Shown: piece after piece, positions 6,092-64,000 of the stretch
How positions within the stretch are numbered: position 1 is the stretch's first letter
Layout: every line of letters starts with the position of its first letter
Assembly (NCBI RefSeq): GCF_963921235.1
Contig: NC_086108.1
Location: forward strand, 11,222,001 to 11,286,000
Reading direction: 5' to 3'
Origin: Mobula hypostoma
Taxonomy: Eukaryota
DNA length: 64,000 nucleotides
Notes under the pieces: model-generated
Told to the model about the DNA's origin: nothing
Databases searched by the model: none
Seen by the model: only the letters and a program-made list of their open reading frames with translations
Made by a program: the position numbers and the translations under genes

Positions 6092-9000
6092 TTGGCTCCG
6101 CCGAAGTCCTACGCACAAACTGCGGGGTCAGTAGTTGCCACTGACGAAGAATTACTGACTCTAAAGAACGCTGTACAGTGTACCGTGCCTACTTCAGTCG
6201 GTAGGAATGCCGACATAAGAGCCAAGGCAGAGACTGTTGGAGGCCGTGAGGGTATTGTTGTGGTAGCGGTTTTGAATGGGAAAACTATTTTCTATTTGAA
6301 GTCACCGAGGGGTGTGTTTTTGACTGAGTCAGGGGTTAACGTTGGGGAGGGTTTTTATGCAGGTGGAGCCGGTGTTGGCCCCCGTGCAGTTGGTAATACT
6401 CTCTGACACCCACCCCATGACAAGGCCCTCTTCCCCTGTCTGTGCTCCATCGGCGAGGTGCGTTCGAAAATAACCCCGATACGGTACGGGGCACCTCCAC
6501 GGGGTAATGAGCACCGATTCTCATTCCAGCGCCGTCTGCTTATGCAGTTAGAGTGGGGCGGGCATGCCGAGGGGCGGCTTCAGGTTTATCTTGAGGGGCA
6601 TTAGTATACCATCCCGAGGGCTATGGGTCACCCGAGATGCCATGCCTGTAAGGAGCTTGGGCACATTCGGAAGAATTGCCCAAACCATCGGCGGCCAACT
6701 CTGCCTCGGAGGCACAGGGTGATTCAGATGTGCCTTCCCCAGCTGACCTCCCTCTGTGCCACAGGCTGTGGAAACCGAGGTTGGATACGGGGTGGGTTAT
6801 GAGGGGGGATGGGTTCAGGGGGCGGGTTACGAGGGGGGATGGGTTCAGGTGGTGGGTTACGAGGGGGGATGGGCTCAGGTTGGGGGTTACGAGGGGGGAT
6901 GGGCTCAGGTTGGGGGTTACGAGGGGGGATGGGTTCAGGTGGTGGGTTACGAGGGGGATGGGCTCAGGTTGGGGGTTACGAGGAGGAAGGGGTTCAGGTT
7001 GAGGGTTAAGAAGGGGGATGGGTTCAGGTGGTGGGTTACGAGGAGGGATGGGTTCAGGTTGGGGGTTACGAGGGGGAGGGGTTCAGGTGGTGGGTTACGA
7101 GGGGGGATGGGTTCAGGTTGGGGGTTACGGGGGGGATGGGTTCAGGTGGCGGGTTACAAGGAGGGATGGGTTCAGGTGGTGGGTTACGAGGGGGGATGGG
7201 CTCAGGTTGGGGGTTACGAGGGGGGATGGGCTCAGGTTGGGGGTTACGAGGGGGGATGGGTTCAGGTGGTGGGTTACGAGGGGGATGGGCTCAGGTTGGG
7301 GGTTACGAGGAGGAAGGGGTTCAGGTTGAGGGTTAAGAAGGGGGATGGGTTCAGGTGGTGGGTTACGAGGAGGGATGGGTTCAGGTTGGGGGTTACGAGG
7401 GGGAGGGGTTCAGGTGGTGGGTTACGAGGGGGGATGGGTTCAGGTTGGGGGTTACGGGGGGGATGGGTTCAGGTGGCGGGTTACAAGGAGGGATGGGTTC
7501 GGGTGGTGGGTTACGAGGGGGGATGGGTTCAGGTTGGGGGTTACGAGGGGGGATGGGTTCAGGTGACAGGTTACGAGGAGGGATGGGTTCAGGTTGGGGG
7601 GTTACGAGGGGGAGGGGTTCAGGTGGCGGGTTACGAAGGGGGATGGGTTCAGGTGGTGGGTTACGAGGGGGGATGGGTTCAGGTTGGGGGTTACGAGGGG
7701 GGATGGGTTCAGGTTGGGGGTTATGAGGGAGGATGGGTTCAGGTTGGGGGTTACGAGGGGGATGGGTTCAGGTTGGGGGTTACGAGGGGGGATGGGTTCA
7801 GGTTGGGGGTTACGGGGGGATGGGTTCAGGTTGGGGGTTACGAGGGGGATGGATTCAGGTGACGGGTTACGAGGAGGGATGGGTTCAGGTGGCGGGTTAC
7901 GAGGGGGGATGGGTTTTGGTGATGGGTTATGAGGGGGGATGGGTTCAGGTGGTGGGTTACGAAGAGGGATGGGTTCAGGTGGTGGGTTACGAGGAGGAAG
8001 GGGTTCAGGTTGAGGGTTAAGAAGGGGGATGGGTTCAGGTGGTGGGTTACGAGGAGGGATGGGTTCAGGTTGGGGGTTATGAGGGAGGATGGGTTCAGGT
8101 TGGGGGTTACGAGGGGGATGGATTCAGGTGACGGGTTACGAGGAGGGATGGGTTCAGGTGGCGGGTTACGAGGGGGGATGGGTTTTGGTGATGGGTTATG
8201 AGGGGGGATGGGTTCAGGTGGTGGGTTACGAGGGGGGATGGGTTCAGGTGGTGGGTTACGAGGGGGGATGGGTTCAGGTTGGGGGTTACGAGGGGGAATG
8301 GGTTCAGGTGGCGGGTTACGAAGGGGGATGGGTTCAGGTGGTGGGTTATGAGGGGGGATGGGTTCAGGTTGGGGGTTACGAGGGGGATGGGTTCAGGTCG
8401 GGGGTTACGAGGGGGGATGGGTTCAGGTGGTGGGTTACGAGGGGGGTATGGGTTCAGGTTGGGGGTTACGAAGGGGGATGGGTTCAGGTTGGGGGTTACG
8501 AGGGGGATGGGTTCAGGTTGGGGGTTACGAGGGGGGATGGGTTCAGGTTGGGGGTTATGAGGGGGATGGGTTCAGGTTGGGGGTTACGAGGGGGGATGGG
8601 TTCAGGTTGGGGGTTACAAGGGGGGATGGGTTCAGGTTGGGGGTTACGAGGGGGATGGGTTCAGGTGGCAGGCAGGAAGGTGAAAAAGAAGAAAAGGCAT
8701 CTGAAGGCTTCTCCCCCAGAGAAGGAGCAGCTTGTTACTGTTGAACGAGCCCAGAGGGTCTCGTGGCTCCCGAAATCCAGCAAGACCCCGGGGAAATCGG
8801 CAGGGGGGGTAGTGCTGGAGGCTGAGGGCACCTCTGTAATGGAGCTCAGCGTGCCTCAGCATATCTGTGGCCTGAAATGACGGAGGGGCGTGTCCCCTGA
8901 GACTGGGGGTCAGGAGCCTCAGGAGGAGGATGAGGATGTGAAGGCCATTTGTGCGGAGTATGTCCTCTGGAGCTGGAGGATAGCCCAGTCGTACAGGGGC

Positions 9001-18930: not shown

Positions 18931-19242
18931 TCCTGTTAATGTGCCTGCCAACAGGGTCTTCTGTTGAGAACCAAGCTTGGATATATTTAAAGCGGAGATC
19001 GATAGGATGGTGGAGAAGACTCAGTGGGCTGAATCGCCTAATTCTGCTCCGTGGAGAAAATGGAGAGCATAAAGTTCTTTGATGTATACACAATGGACAA
19101 TCTAACCTGAACCTACAATACCTCCACATTAGTGAAGAGGGGCACAGCAGAGTCTACACTTTGTGAGGTGATTGAGGCATGCAAAGCTTCCCACCTCCAT
19201 TCTACAGGATCCCTATCAAGAGTGTCATGTCTGATGCATCAC

Positions 19243-20005
19243 TTACAGTGACAGAAGGATTGTCCTTACAGTGGCAGAGAGATTGTCATTACGGTGACAG
19301 AGAGATTGTCCTTACAGTGACAGAATGTTTGTCCTTACAGTGACAGGGAGATTGTCCTTACAGTGACAGAGAGATTGTCCTTATGGTGACAGAGGGATTG
19401 TCCTTACAGTGACAGAGAGATTGTCCTTATGGTGACAGAGAGATTGTCCTTACAGTGACAGAGGGATTGTCCTTACAGTGACAGAATGATTGTCCTTACA
19501 GTGACAGAGAGATTGTCCTTACAGTGACAGAGGGATTGTCCTTACAGAGAAGGAGAGATTGTCCTTACAGTGACAGAGGGATTGTCCTTACAGTGACAGA
19601 ATGATTGTCCTTACAGTGACAGAGAGATTGTCATTACGGTGATGGAGAGATTGTCCTTACAGTGATGGAGAGATTGTCCTTACGGTGATGGAGAGATTGT
19701 CCTTACAGTGACGGAGAGATTGTCATTACGGTGATGGGGAGATTGTCGTTACAGTGACAGAGAAATTGTCCTGACAGAGATGGAGAAATTGTCCTTATGG
19801 TGATGGAGAGATTGTCCTTACATTGAAGGAGAGATTGTCATTACAGTGACAGAGAGATTGTCCTTACAGTGACAGAGAGATTGTCCTTATGGTGACGGAG
19901 ATAGTGTCTTTACGGTGACGGAGAGATTGTTCTTACGGTGATGGGGAGATTGTCATTACAGTGACGGAGAGAATTAATTTACAGTGACAGAGGGATTGTC
20001 CTTAC
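19243..20005 (+). repeat. 23-bp minisatellite (attgtccttacagtgacagagag), about 33 copies
   Basis: period 23 (e.g. units at 19397 and 19420). Confidence 0.93.
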
Positions 20006-31754: not shown

Positions 31755-33040
31755 ATGACATCATGAGGGATCCCACCCACCCTGCTCATGGACTGTTTAT
31801 CCCACTCCCATCAGGGAGGAGGCTACGTAGCATCCACACCAGGATCACCAGATTCAAAAACAGTTACATTCCCCAAGCAGTAAGGCTGATCAAGAACTCC
31901 GCCCTCTAACCCACCCCTCCACACTCCCAACCACCACTACTTCATCAATTCCACTCACTAACTCACTCCTCCACATCCCCAACCATCACTACTTCATCAA
32001 TTCCACTCACTAACCCACTCCTCCACATCCCCAACCATCACTACTTCATCAATTCCACTCACTAACTCACTCCTCCACATCCCCAACCATCACTACTTCA
32101 TCAATTCCACTCACTAACTCACTCCTCCACATCCCCAACCATCACTACTTCATCAATTCCACTCACTAACCCACTCCTCCACATCCCCAACCACCACTAC
32201 TTCATCAATTCCACTCACTAACTCACTCCTCCACATCCCCAACCATCACTACTTCATCAATTCCACTCACTAACTCACTCCTCCACATCCCCAACCATCA
32301 CTACTTCATCAATTCCACTCACTAACTCACTCCTCCACATCCCCAACCATCACGACTTCATCAATTCCACTCACTAACTCACTCCTCCACATCCCCAACC
32401 ATCACTACTTCATCAATTCCACTCACTAACTCACTCCTCCACATCCCCAACCATCACTACTTCATCAATTCCACTCACTAACCCACTCCTCCACATCCCC
32501 AACCATCACTACTTCATCAATTCCACTCACTAACCCACTCCTCCACATCCCCAACCACCACTACTTCATCAATTCCACTCACTAACTCACTCCTCCACAT
32601 CCCCAACCATCACTACTTCATCAATTCCACTCACTAACTCACTCCTCCACATCCCCAACCATCACTACTTCATCAATTCCACTCACTAACCCACTCCTCC
32701 ACATCCCCAACCACCACTACTTCATCAATTCCACTCACTAACTCACTCCTCCACATCCCCAACCATCACTACTTCATCAATTCCACTCACTAACCCACTC
32801 CTCCACATCCCCAACCATCACTACCTTATCATTTCCTGTCAGAATCACCTTAGGTACAGACACTCCTGTGCCCAGCATCACTTTATGAGCATACAATCAA
32901 TCTATGTATATAAGCTATCTGATGTATTTATATTTATTGTGTTCTTTAACTTGTGTTTTTTGTTTGTGCTGCATCAGATCCAGGGTAACACTTTTTTTTT
33001 CTCATTTACACTCGTGTACTGGAAATGACGTTTTGAATTC
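31755..33040 (+). mobile_element. Rex1/Babar-like LINE 3' end containing a minisatellite
   Basis: IMRDPTHPAHGLFIPLPSGRRLRSIHTRITRFKNSYIPQAVRL C-terminal motif. Confidence 0.75.
31905..32825 (+). repeat. 52-bp minisatellite, about 17 near-identical copies, almost G-free on plus
   Basis: unit ccactcactaactcactcctccacatccccaaccatcactacttcatcaatt. Confidence 0.95.
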
Positions 33041-33565: not shown

Positions 33566-35583
33566 AACGTCCAGGCTGAAATATTTCACATTCTCATTAA
33601 ATCCTCCAGTTGCTGGATCAGTTGATGTTTCGGGCCGGGACCTTTCATCAAGCCTAATATACTCTCCATGCTTGTGTTCCCATCCAACGCCTGCGGATAA
33701 TTCTTTGTCCCACCCGCCCTGGGTCAGTCTCCTTCACTTCCACAAGTGAGGGGCAGGAGAGGAACGGTCTGTCTCTCATGCATCAATGTTGCTCGGTAAT
33801 TATGAATTCTCCAAAGTCTTTCCACGCAGATATGTCACCTCTTCATTCCCCCCAATAACTGATCCACATCCCCCCCACCCTTTCAATCCACTACTGAGAC
33901 TCTCCCCATTTCACAACTTGTAAAAGTTAGACCATAAGAGTTGTGGTGCTTGGAAGAGCTGGGAAGTGTTGGTTAGGATAGTATTCTGGCAGGATTGAGT
34001 GGTCTGTATGAGAAGATGTCTTCAGCTGAAGATCTTTGAACATGGTAACGTAGTAGTCAATGGAATACTCTTAGATTGCAAACGACCTTGGTCCAATCCC
34101 GACACCATCTGCAAGGAGTTTCTATGTCCTCTCTGTAACAGTATGGGATTCCTCCGGGTGCTCTGGTCTCCTCCCACATTGCAAAGACGTACAGGTCAGT
34201 AGGTTATTTGGTCACATGGGTGCAACTGGGTAGCGTGGGCTCATTGAGCCAGAAGGACTGGTTACCACGCTGATCTTGAAATCAAATAAATATCTGCACT
34301 GTTGAGTCCAACCCTTCCTTCAGCTGCAGTAAGTCTGCTGCCTGAGGGGGTTTGGAGGTTCACGTGAACCTCCACCAGTTCAGACTTCTCAGGAAGGCAC
34401 ACACCAGTGACGCCCATCAGCACGACATGTTGGGAATTTAACAGTGGCGGCATGGGTTGTGTGAACGGTGTTCTCACCCACGGAGGCTTCAGGATGAAGG
34501 TGATCATTCCCACGTGGCCCATTCTGCCTCAGTGTAAACTGAATCATGTAATACCATAATATCCTTTGTCAAAGATCGTTAAAGGTTAGTTTTATTTGTC
34601 ATATATATAAAGTTAAAAAGTTTAAAGTACATTCATTGTCAAAGCAGGTTCAACGTTCAAAATAAATTTTATTATCGAGGTACATGTATATCTCCATATA
34701 CAACCCTGAGATTAATTTTCCTCTGGGCATACTCAGCCAAACTCTAGAATAGTGACTATAACAGGATCATTGAAAGATCAACCAGAGTGCAGAAGACAAC
34801 AAACTGTGCAAATGCAAATATAAATTAATAGCAATAAATAATAAGAACATGAGATAATGAGACAAGGAATCCTTAAAGTGAGATCATTGGTTGTGGGAAC
34901 ATCTCAATGGATGGGCAAGTGAGTGTAGTTATCCCCTTTTGTTCAAGAACCTGATGGTTGAGGGTAGTAACTGTTCCTGAACCTGGTGGTGTGAGTCCTG
35001 AGGCTCCTGTACCTTCTACCTGATGGGAGCAGCAAGAAGAGAGCATGGCCTGGGTGGTGAGGATCTCTGATGACGGATGCTGCATTGCTATTATGGCATT
35101 TCATTTAGATGTGCTCAGTAGTTGGGAGGGCTTACCTGTGATGAACTGAGACAAATCCACTACCTTTTGTAAGATTTTCCATTCAAAGGCATTGGTGTTT
35201 CCATATCAGGTCATGAAACAACCAGACAATACATTCTCCACTACACATCTATAGAAGTTTGTCAAAGTTTTAGATGTCAAGCCAAATCTCCACAGACTCC
35301 TAAGCAAGTAGACGTGCTGTTGTGCTTTCTTCGCAATTGCATTTACGTACTGGGGGTCCAGAACAGATCCTCTGAAATAGGAATCTAAAGCTGTTAATCC
35401 TCTCCACCAGGACTGGCTCATGGACCTTTGGTTCCCTTCTCCTGAAGACAGTAATCAGTTCCTAAGTCTTGCTGACCCTGAGTGAGAGGTTGTTGTGGCA
35501 CCACTCAGCCAGATTTTCAATCTCCCTCCTGTATGCTGATTAATCACCACCTTTGATTTGGCCAATGACAGTGGTGTCATCAG

Positions 35584-36125
35584 TCAGTCCCGAATCTGGG
35601 GTTGGCGGCTATGCACCTCCATCTTCTTCGATCTTGCGACAGCACCGAGTACAGCCTCTCCTCCAGTTTGTTCTCGCTGGCGCCTTGGCACCGCCCGCCG
35701 AACTCGAGCCTGAGGCTGTGTTGGCCTCCAGCCGCGGCCGCTCCTTCGAGCTCGGCCCTTCCTTAGGCGGAGGCCTTGGGCAGGTCCAGGTACACGGTAC
35801 AGCGCCCAAGTTCATCAGGTCTCTTCTAATGAGGTGCATAGCATACGATTTGTAGATACGTGGTGAGGCTTTAATCTCTTCCATGGAAGATGGCCGTTGG
35901 CTCACAAGGAGCTCATCCGCCCTTTGTCAGGTCTTGTTTTTTTCAGTCCTGCTGGGTGTCCTCACACCCTCCTCACCAGACTAAGTCTGGTGGGGGAGCC
36001 AGCCTAAGTCGCCGACTACTCGACCACAGCCCCCGGCCGAGCGCCAGGCGCCTGCCCCCCACCGAATCTCTCGGAGCATCTGGCACCCGACCGAAAACCA
36101 TGGTCGAGCGGCCAGCGACCAAACC
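35584..36125 (-). mobile_element. composite non-autonomous retroposon: hairpin head + structured middle + host-gene fragment + RTE-like 3' tail
   Basis: 11-bp TSD ggtgtcatcag (35573-35583) / ggcgtcatcag (36126-36136); tail reads SQDRRRWRCIAANPRFGTD*, like RTE ORF ends. Confidence 0.8.
35639..35803 (-). pseudogene. ZFTRAF1: circularly permuted fragment of ZFTRAF1 (CYHR1) 5' coding exon
   Basis: minus strand reads CTVYLDLPKAS, then EGPSSKERPRL...(frameshift)...[13 protein letters not shown]; vertebrate ZFTRAF1 as recalled reads PKKRLR...[26 protein letters not shown]. Confidence 0.75.
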
Positions 36126-36407
36126 GGCGTCATCAGCAAACTTAAATATGGCACTGAAGCCATGCTTAGCCACATAGTCATAAGTGTAAGGCGAGTAGAG
36201 CAGGGGGCGAAGCACACATCTCTGTGCTGTACAGAAATTCATCCTGCAGGCAGCCACAAAATAGAGAAACACAACAGAATCCACTAAAACCTCACACAAC
36301 AAGAATGTCAAACACTTAATGTGCGAAAAAGAACAAATTGAGCAAACAATTTTTAAGAAGTAAATAAATAATTCACAGAGGATGAACCACAGAGTCCCCA
36401 AAAGTGA

Positions 36408-36770
36408 GGCCACAGTCACCAGTCCGTTCGGTGCTGAGGCGAGTGAAGCCGGACCAGGAGCCTCATGGTTGAAGGCCACGGTCACGAGTCCGTTCGGTGC
36501 TGAGGCGAGTGAAGCCGGGCCAGGAGCCTCATGGTTGAAGGCCACGGTCACGAGTCCGTTCGGTGCTGAGGCGAGTGAAGCCGGGCCAGGAGCCTCATGG
36601 TTGAAGGCCACGGTCACGAGTCCGTTCGGTGCTGAGGCGAGTGAAGCCGGGCCAGGAGCCTCATGGTTGAAGGCCACGGTCACGAGTCCGTTCGGTGCTG
36701 AGGCGAGTGAAGCCGGACCAGGAGCCTCATGGTTGAAGGCCACAGTCACGAGTCCGTTGAGCGCTGAGGC
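36408..36770 (+). repeat. 66-bp tandem repeat, about 5.5 copies, inside a LINE-tail element
   Basis: agtccgttcggtgctgagg at 36421, 36487 and onward; gives a 22-aa repeat in the ORF track. Confidence 0.93.
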
Positions 36771-38469: not shown

Positions 38470-38690
38470 TAGAGAGGATAGTCTGACCGAGATAGGGTTT
38501 TCTCTTTGGAGTGATGGAGGGTGAGAGGTGACTTGATAGAGGTGTATAAGATGATAAGAAGCACAGATTGAGTGGATAGCCAGAGACTTTAACCCCAGAT
38601 GAAAATGGCTAATGTAAGGGGACATAATTTTAAGGTCATTGAAGACTACAGAGGGGATGTCAAAGATAAGTTGAAAATGCTGACAAAGGT
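38470..38690 (+). mobile_element. CR1 fragment
   Basis: gaggtgacttgatagaggtgtataagatgataaga. Confidence 0.75.
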
Positions 38691-39075
38691 GGACGTAGCG
38701 GGAGATACGATAGGGTGGAAGGTAGAGGGAGATACGTTAGGGTGGAGGTAGAGAGAGATACGATCAGGTGGGGGTAGAGGGAGATACATTAGGGTGGAGG
38801 TAGAGGCAGATACTTTAGGGTGGAGGTAGAGGGAGATACGATAGGGTGGAGGTACAGGAAGATACGATAGGTTGGAGGTAGAGCAGATACTTCAGGGTGG
38901 AGGTAGAGGGAGATATGATCGGGTGGAGGTAGAGGGAGATACGATAGGATGAAGGTAGAGGGAGATACGATAGGGTGGAGGTAGAGGGAGATACGATAGG
39001 GTGGAGATAGAGGGAGATACGTTAGGGTGGAGGTAGAGGGAGATACGATAGGGTGGAGGTAGAGGAAGATACGTG
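38690..39075 (+). repeat. ~26-bp minisatellite (gggtggaggtagagggagatacgata), about 14 copies, CR1-derived
   Basis: direct reading; unit resembles CR1 gtggtagaggcaga...aggg. Confidence 0.85.
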
Positions 39076-63100: not shown

Positions 63101-64000
63101 CCAGATCACAGGGAACTCCCGACCACAGGGAATTCCAAACCAGAGGGAACTCCAGAACACAGGGAATTCCAGACCACAGGGAACTCCGTACCACAGGAAA
63201 CTCCAGACCACTGGGAATTCCAGACCACAGGGTACTCTAGACCACAGAGAAGCCCAGACCACAGGGAACTCCAGATCACTGGGACCACCAGACAATAGGG
63301 AATTCCAGACCACAGGTATCTTCAGACCACAGGAAACTCCAGACCACAGGGAACTCCAGACCACAGGGAGCTCTAGACCACAGGGAATTCCACACCACAG
63401 GGAACTCCTGACCACAGGGAACCGCAGACCACAGGGAACTCCAGACCACAGGGAACACCAGGCAACAAGGAACACCAGACTACAGGGCATTCCAGACCGC
63501 AGGGAACTCCAGACCACAGGGAGTTCCAGACCACAGCGAACTCCAGACCACTGGGATCTCCAGACCATAGGGAATTCCAGACCACATTGAACCCCAGACC
63601 ACAAGGAACTCCAGAACACAGCGAATTCCAGACCATAGGGAATTCCAGACCACAGGGAACTCCAGACCACAGAGAACTCTTGACCACAGGGAATTCCAAA
63701 CCAGAGGGAACTCCAGAACACAGAGAATTCCAGACCACAGGGAACTCCAGATGACTGGGACCTCCAGCCTTCAGGGAATTCCAGATGGCAGGGACCTCCA
63801 GACCACAGGGTATTCCAGACCACAGGGAACTCCAGACCACAGGGAGTTCCAGACCACAGCGAACTCCAGACCACTGGGATCTCCAGACCATAGGGAATTC
63901 CAGACCACATTGAACCCCAGACCACAAGGAACTCCAGAACACAGCGAATTCCAGACCATAGGGAATTCCAGACCACAGGGAACTCCAGACCACAGAGAAC
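57145..64000 (+). repeat. 17-bp satellite (gggaactccagaccaca / gggaattccagaccaca) with higher-order repeats; runs off the window end
   Basis: direct reading; identical variant blocks recur at offsets 814, ~1950 and 1560 bp (ORFs at 57882, 58696, 60646, 62206). Confidence 0.97.

Follow-up and report, generated by a model that had tools for sequence, protein, structure and literature searches.

A rotated unit of ZFTRAF1 exon 1 in an RTE-derived retroposon family of Mobula hypostoma

How could part of a host coding exon come to lie inside a multi-copy retroposon with its end placed before its beginning? This question is raised by a locus in a 64,000-nt stretch of the Mobula hypostoma genome (RefSeq assembly GCF_963921235.1, contig NC_086108.1, positions 11,222,001 to 11,286,000 of the forward strand; hereafter the window), where the minus strand at 36127-35584 carries one full-length copy of a ~575-bp non-autonomous retroposon family. 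An earlier inspection of the letters alone (the sequence-only reading) had proposed that this copy contains a circularly permuted exon fragment of the gene ZFTRAF1 and a tail derived from an RTE-type long interspersed element (LINE). Judged from its sequence, the element is an internally deleted RTE, i.e., a LINE-dependent non-autonomous retroposon (a short interspersed element, SINE, in the wide sense), in which a rotated ZFTRAF1 unit fills the deletion joint.

Rotated order of the ZFTRAF1 unit

Comparison of an intact copy of the larger ZFTRAF1 segment (segment A; L007:1867-2001) with proteins yielded only one match with E<=0.1 among 70 candidates, namely isoform X2 of the Pristis pectinata zinc finger TRAF-type-containing protein 1, residues 65-112 of which are matched at 67% identity (E 7.6e-7). 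By means of the Pristis pectinata protein, the genome's own ZFTRAF1 was located as four exons on contig C5. The gene (L012/L010, G000:C5) spans ~158 kb, with an intron 1 of ~91 kb. Its exon 1 ends with ...gtctaccag/gtacag (the slash marking the boundary) after the codons ...KASVYQ. When 16 orthologues and isoforms are aligned, isoforms with insertions at that very point back this boundary.

In the element, positions 365-489 (segment A) match L012 1691-1554 (E 8e-45), while positions 325-364 (segment B) match L012 1553-1514 (E 3e-12). The two segments thus adjoin in the gene without gap or overlap, A directly upstream of B, whereas their order in the element is B-A. In other words, a unit of 178 nt (71% G+C, from the first exon) is present with its last 40 nt placed first and its first 138 nt second, the ag at the B/A joint being assignable to either segment. 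The same limits apply to a consensus of 68 copies, which shows 2 mismatches to the gene over the 138 nt of A and 1 over the 40 nt of B, and no ZFTRAF1 sequence beyond the 178-nt unit was detected in the element. In the window copy, segment B extends over 35803-35764 and segment A over 35763-35639 (both minus strand). In the frame used, B translates into CTVYLDLPKASA followed by a stop, the window copy reading CTVYLDLPKAS (CTV[C/Y]LDLPKAS with both variants at the fourth codon). Segment A (EGPSSKKRPRLE...) has suffered 12-nt and 1-nt deletions relative to the family consensus, the latter of which shifts the N-terminal half of A (EGPSSKERPRLE...) to another frame.

The low-complexity stretch of the cargo differs by a single amino acid from the species' own gene and is unlike that of five other chondrichthyans, wherefore the cargo is attributed to the ZFTRAF1 of this lineage itself. 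The sequence-only reading proved accurate with respect to the identity of the gene, the exact permutation and the exon boundary after YQ; its order of the segments on the minus strand also holds, only that it had drawn the border between them 2 nt away, at 35762/35761. A tandem duplication in the source gene, which the same reading had named as a refuting explanation of the permuted order, is absent from exon 1 in the 3.3 kb examined.

The retroposon family and its RTE partner

A DNA search of the genome with the element returned 2510 first-look candidates, and all 40 of those scored showed 88-100% identity. The 22-nt sequence across the B/A joint occurs at 738 genomic sites (<=2 mismatches), compared to none for the reversed pattern used as control. 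Among 83 distinct copies, chosen as the best-scoring matches, mean identity to the consensus is 93.1%. The 3' end is intact in 81 of them, whereas 5' truncation is variable and 27 copies are full length (start <=10 nt from the 5' end), the full-length copies all beginning in the 5' end defined by consensus 1-28. An exact target-site duplication (TSD) of >=7 nt flanks 26 of the 83 copies according to a naive exact-match script, those of the other copies appearing imperfect. In case of the window copy, the 8-bp TSD ctgatgac was recognised by direct reading as well as by the script (row L001); on the minus strand it borders the element at 36136-36129 (left) and 35583-35576 (right). The left duplicate lies inside the codons for the FADD motif of an older LINE, the reverse transcriptase (RT) frame of which is split by the insertion exactly between ...KFADD and TTVIG..., and excision of the element together with one TSD copy rebuilds ...KFADD/TTVIG... 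of this LINE.

Searches with parts of the element gave no sign of a larger family sharing the head only or the body only: the body-only search yielded 967 candidates (40 of 40 scored being full length) and the head-only search 940 candidates, many of which coincide with known copies. Likewise, an insert-less ancestor (RTE 5' piece, 0-25 nt, tail start) had no match genome-wide with exact flanks, and no extra A or B was observed among the 83 copies, save for single private rearrangements. A head derived from tRNA, 5S, 7SL or another RNA was not detected, as Rfam gave no match at E<=1 for the window copy and seven loci, and ARAGORN found none on the consensus; the Rfam comparison of the same eight sequences also revealed neither a ribozyme nor any other Rfam family. 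An A-box-like 11-mer spotted by eye is not counted as evidence for an RNA polymerase III (Pol III) promoter. A classification as SINE in the strict sense was rejected, since the head consists of RTE 5' untranslated region (UTR) plus a hairpin and a Pol III-type head was not found.

When the last 73 nt of the element were used alone as query, 30 loci were obtained, comprising 19 family copies and 11 loci matching the consensus only from position 503 onwards. The latter represent LINE 3' ends, in 11 of 11 of which a frame closing with ...GKRERGRQRTTWYDNVRQWTGLSYAEARKRAQDRRRWRCIAANPGFGTAPTD reaches its stop TGA inside the terminal (ACTG)n. Upstream of the shared tail, the partner LINE encodes an RVT_1 domain (E 1.9e-8), and its 5' part holds a 608-codon open frame starting from MHLVRRD with an Exo_endo_phos domain (E 1.9e-7). 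The complete open reading frame (ORF) is estimated at ~1,000 aa in a single frame with N-terminal endonuclease and RT, and no ORF1 was judged present in the ~275 nt of upstream sequence that were the sole stretch covered. Elements of the RTE clade are marked by a single endonuclease-plus-RT frame, virtually no 3' UTR and a short tandem-repeat end; the deduced features of the partner LINE appear to fit this clade.

The 5' part of the element originates from the same kind of LINE. Consensus 102-310 matches a LINE 5' region (L104 1121-1322; 83.8%, E 6.6e-65), and sixteen further LINE 5' ends agree with this match (17 aligned, plus their majority sequence). The ~225 nt retained comprise 5' UTR and the ORF start as far as codon 12 (...gatgaacttgggc), with B directly next; in the window copy this region (consensus 99-324) is found in normal order at 36029-35804, where a portion of the 5' UTR is followed by the initial 12 RTE codons (MHLVRRDMMNLG...). 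At the other end, the last 73 nt and the (ACTG)n tail are kept, represented in the window copy at 35638-35584 by the last RTE codons (SQDRRRWRCIAANP...) and a shortened (ACTG)n end, whereas ~3 kb between the two ends are missing. Except for the inverted first 28 nt, all parts of the element have the same orientation and are enclosed by one TSD pair. Two other candidates for LINE 5' sequence were discarded: L103, upstream of the LINE copy L077, is not LINE, since L077 is 5' truncated, and L091/L092 represents a tandem duplication of a truncated LINE without 5' end. The latter locus (G000:C71:30572871-30578928) contains a 2,985-bp tandem duplication (99.9% identical), each unit with a 5'-truncated RTE 3' half.

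The longest ORF of the family consensus has only 93 codons (ATG at consensus 289) and does not encode an RT. As a separate observation, this frame (window 35839-35584, minus strand; consensus 289-570) extends from the RTE start codon (MHLVRRD) to the RTE stop in (ACTG)n, passes through segment B in a foreign frame, then follows the ZFTRAF1 frame (with KKRPR) through segment A, and is intact in 32 of 62 sampled copies, a biased sample. Taken together, the RTE tail supposed from the letters alone is borne out by a LINE with N-terminal endonuclease domain, RT domain and a stop inside (ACTG)n, and the supposed non-autonomous RTE derivative by the RTE origin of its 5' part also; multiplicity with independent TSDs, which that reading had raised as a condition, is borne out by the 738 joint sites and the 26 copies with exact duplications.

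The 5' end of the element differs in its architecture. Apart from three differences, all of them A>G, consensus 1-28 (window 36127-36100, minus strand) agrees with the LINE 5' consensus read in reverse complement; this inverted copy of RTE 5' UTR makes up the outer part of the 5' arm in a long hairpin. The adjacent GC-rich inner hairpin (consensus 29-98; window 36099-36030, minus strand) could be aligned neither with the LINE 5' region, whether direct or inverted, nor with the ZFTRAF1 exon 1 locus; possibly, these 70 nt derive from another host RNA. The hairpin as a whole (window 36127-35998, minus strand; consensus 1-130) comprises 56 pairs (37 G-C, 15 G-U and 4 A-U) and no A-C mismatches. 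Where its arms can be compared with the RTE 5' UTR, the sense strand shows A>G in 7 of 7 substitutions, as opposed to 0 of 3 outside the hairpin. This pattern looks as if a double-stranded RNA had undergone adenosine-to-inosine (A-to-I) hyper-editing and retrotransposition had fixed the result.

Origin of the rotated unit

The B/A joint connects L012 1514 with 1691. Exon 1 ends at 1510, which places the joint 4 nt short of the donor, and the AG expected ahead of a cryptic acceptor is part of it; equivalently, it may be written as the exact back-splice joint minus CC and with a neighbouring T>C exchange. The identical joint (GCCTCCGCCTAAGGAAGGG) is found between the anchors in 29 of 68 sampled copies, while 38 show private changes and one was unread. 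In contrast, the exact back-splice joint (...CTACCAGGAAGGG; CTACCAG/GAAGGG) is absent from all 67 sampled copies with a located joint, and a 24-nt probe for it detects no site genome-wide at <=2 mismatches. Among 35 copies passing a strict regular expression, gene-like bases at the three diagnostic sites distinguishing family and gene are rare and unlinked, which argues for a single founder and led to rejection of an older subfamily nearer to the gene. Accordingly, the sampled copies all descend from one founder joint.

The break point is located in the loop of a predicted hairpin, CGGTGC-tgt/gct-GCACC(G), with unpaired probabilities of 0.47 and 0.97. At the two other transitions, A/tail and RTE/B, no convincing microhomology was observed. 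The 7-mer AAGGAAG at the B/A joint (consensus ~360-370) is also present in the RTE, 34 nt downstream of the RTE/B switch (L104-L120); this may be due to chance or may be a trace of a microhomology-guided switch.

With slightly more than even confidence, we favour an RNA route, in which the RT of the RTE copied a ZFTRAF1 exon 1 RNA of circular topology for one lap, giving rise to a single founder. The enzyme would first have copied the 73 nt of the RTE RNA 3' end and then have switched to the exon 1 RNA. The latter may have been closed into a circle, or may have been a fragment, nicked and folded, whose ends were held together. After exactly one lap, with entry and exit in the small hairpin loop where the RT would meet its own product, it would have returned to the 5' part of the RTE RNA. 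The resulting chimera could have been amplified in trans by the RTE machinery to many hundreds of copies, because it keeps both RTE ends. That the circle consisted of RNA and not of DNA, the path of one lap and the reason for the shared point of entry and exit are inferred: a full turn on a circular template brings the RT to its own product, which would explain adjacent entry and exit bases, and a unit devoid of intron sequence that ends 4 nt from the exon 1 donor speaks for processed or nascent RNA over DNA. In this model, the hairpin loop would be a plausible place for a nick or for an invading cDNA (complementary DNA) end. The exon 1 donor faces the ~91-kb intron, which fits the first-exon context reported for LINE-1 chimeras. 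The position of the cargo at the boundary to the RTE tail had also been considered as an argument for RNA over DNA; it was dropped, as the other flank is RTE as well and a deletion with filler explains it equally.

Within this RNA route, several ways of closing the circle come into consideration. The sequence-only reading had proposed a back-spliced circular RNA (circRNA) or another circular or tandem intermediate, with B ending at the GT donor and A starting after an AG. A spliceosomal circRNA of this kind would have arisen by back-splicing of the exon 1 donor to a cryptic AG in exon 1 (ctggag/gaaggg), with later loss of CC and the T>C exchange in the founder. We consider this unlikely, even though the observed joint (...CTA--AG/GAAGGG) equals the predicted back-splice joint minus CC, the gene does have an AG before GAAGGG, and circRNA-derived retrocopies are documented (PMC4897178). 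The position of the donor before a ~91-kb intron likewise corresponds to a context reported to favour aberrant use of first-exon donors (bioRxiv 10.1101/2025.02.02.635956). However, the homology of B stops 4 nt before the donor, and the exact joint is missing from the sampled copies and from the genome at the thresholds given above. Since no more than 2 of ~172 positions elsewhere in the unit depart from the gene, later drift is an improbable cause of a 2-nt loss together with an exchange immediately at the joint (~1% by our estimate). Moreover, although A is indeed preceded by an AG, exon 1 as the first exon has no known acceptor, the 24 nt before this AG are purine-rich with a better-looking AG (cgcag/g) 27 nt upstream (both judged by eye), and no isoform among the 16 aligned orthologues and isoforms joins there. 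It is correspondingly doubtful that the 178-nt unit preserves a genuine single-exon circRNA from the first exon of ZFTRAF1, formed at a donor stalled before the 91-kb intron and turned into the family master by one lap of the RTE enzyme. Compared with a back-splice, the blunt joint would agree better with a ligated fragment, or with a fragment nicked and folded so that its ends lay side by side. Of the sequence-only proposal, therefore, the wider option of a circular or tandem intermediate fits, whereas its back-spliced form is unproven.

Several points weigh against the favoured one-lap reading itself. The B/A joint does not have the form of a clean splice product, being either 4 nt short of the donor or having lost CC with a T>C exchange. 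The hairpin loop at the break point is a minimum-free-energy prediction and differs when the unit is folded as a circle. The 83 copies constitute a biased sample, in which older or deviant subfamilies are possibly missed. Finally, as both flanks are RTE, the architecture is accounted for just as well by a DNA-level deletion in one RTE copy that was filled with a linearised DNA circle. In such an origin from DNA, an internal deletion of ~3 kb in one genomic RTE copy would have been repaired with a captured circle of the CpG-rich exon 1, opened at a short palindrome, and the repaired copy would then have become the master. MicroDNAs are in character small, G+C-rich and of first-exon origin, a description resembling the 178-bp unit with its 71% G+C. 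Further points in favour of a DNA origin are that the cargo occupies precisely the place where RTE 5' and 3' sequence meet at the deletion, that the joint is blunt and off the splice site, and that the break falls at the centre of a short inverted repeat. On the other hand, the unit contains no intron DNA and ends 4 nt before the exon-intron boundary, which on a DNA template would be a coincidence of ~1 in 20 (our estimate), and the further RT-type irregularities at the 5' end, i.e., the inverted 28-nt copy and the A>G changes confined to the hairpin, favour the RNA route; an origin from DNA is thus rated as rather improbable. Hardly to be expected is a stepwise history, in which a colinear or tandemly duplicated ZFTRAF1 piece (in a master element or a lost gene duplicate) was trimmed to B-A, or the two segments were captured independently. 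Tandem duplication with trimming is a generic route to a permuted order, and the RTE enzyme evidently made several irregular joins in this element, but two independent end points would have to fall on adjacent bases, the chance abutment of two independent pieces within the ~330-nt exon being ~1 in 300 by our estimate. Surplus A or B sequence, a duplicated present-day gene and an insert-less ancestor were also not found in the searches described above.

Genomic surroundings, related systems and significance

The older LINE interrupted by the window copy can be followed in its RT frame over window 35000-35583 and 36129-36290 (minus strand), reading ...LYSPYTYDYVAKHGFSAIFKFADD / TTVIGQIKGGD.SAYRREIENLAEWCHNNNLSL... 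across the insertion. Adjoining this LINE upstream on the minus strand, a 66-nt tandem array (window 36407-36770) consists of 5.5 copies with 97% matches, one frame of which is open as repeated ...APNGLVTVAFNHEAPGPASLAS.... At the far end of the window, a 17-nt unit is repeated 402 times from 57179 up to the window end at 64000, explaining the strong AT skew of this region. Other satellite-like arrays are located at 6794-8668 (a G-rich 30-nt unit, 63 copies), 31906-32836 (52 nt, 18 copies), 19242-20005 (23 nt, 33 copies), 116-587 (112 nt, 4 copies) and 38688-39073 (26 nt, 15 copies).

The case described here combines three known things: non-colinear retrocopies of the circRNA type, chimeras of LINEs with host first exons, and internally deleted LINE derivatives. 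Among the last, HAL1-type half-LINEs are internally deleted, non-autonomous derivatives of LINEs, and Malik and Eickbush (in 1998) are said to have described RTE as a source of SINE tails. The present element resembles such derivatives and RTE-tailed SINEs in having the LINE's own 5' and 3' ends, no RT, presumable mobilisation in trans and a tandem-repeat tail; it departs from them in the rotated host exon unit at the deletion joint, in the 5' inverted-repeat hairpin and in that no Pol III-type head was found. SVA_F1 with MAST2 exon 1 is a known first-exon chimera. LINE chimeras with host first exons or small RNAs are known; for LINE-1, host first exons before long introns have been described as joined in sense to the LINE, with one TSD pair around the chimera, and template switching, trans-splicing and RNA ligation have been proposed as routes, with the possibility that a chimera becomes a source element (Law and Burns, bioRxiv 10.1101/2025.02.02.635956). 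A first exon before a long intron, sense orientation and one TSD pair are features shared by the present family with LINE chimeras of the U6/L1 type. Different from these chimeras, in which the host piece is colinear and situated at the LINE 5' end (bioRxiv 10.1101/2025.02.02.635956), the host piece is internal, permuted and in place of the whole coding region.

In circRNA-derived pseudogenes, non-colinear retrocopies without poly(A) are taken as the mark of a circular template, and in mouse a single source has given rise to 33 high-confidence copies associated with retroelement flanks (PMC4897178). The same study cautions that a circle can be mimicked by structured RNAs that are open but have their ends close together, and calls the mechanism behind permuted retrocopies mysterious. 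As in these pseudogenes, the host sequence considered here is non-colinear and limited to the content of a circle. Unlike their exact exon-to-exon back-splice joints, which derive from multi-exon circles (PMC4897178), the present joint lies within a single first exon and 4 nt off the donor; furthermore, the cargo does not form a set of pseudogenes but is part of an internally deleted LINE found at at least 738 sites. Circular RNA as template for the RT of a retrotransposon is also known from retrozymes and related elements (PMC4918200, PMC7761336). Retrozymes form circles of their own genome via hammerhead ribozymes, whereas the circle-like unit of the present family would be host cargo copied once. 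In the literature, with the repeat databases Repbase and Dfam outside the scope of the search, no report was found of a SINE, LINE derivative or other retroposon family with a permuted exon core.

Germ-line reverse transcription of circular or circle-like RNAs leaves permuted retrocopies as its only genomic trace, and few cases are known. In the family described here, such an event would be kept at base precision, with both template switches readable, i.e., from the RTE 3' end to the exon unit and from the exon unit to the RTE 5' end, and the hundreds of copies allow the founder sequence to be recovered with confidence. At the same time, the family shows how a short non-autonomous family can be born from a LINE in one step; through it, a piece of a CpG-rich host first exon, including an in-frame basic stretch of the KKRPR type, has spread to hundreds of loci. 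Should the circRNA reading be true, this would be the first retroposon family with a circRNA-derived core, and it would provide direct genomic evidence that RTs of non-LTR (lacking long terminal repeats) retrotransposons use circRNA templates in the germ line.

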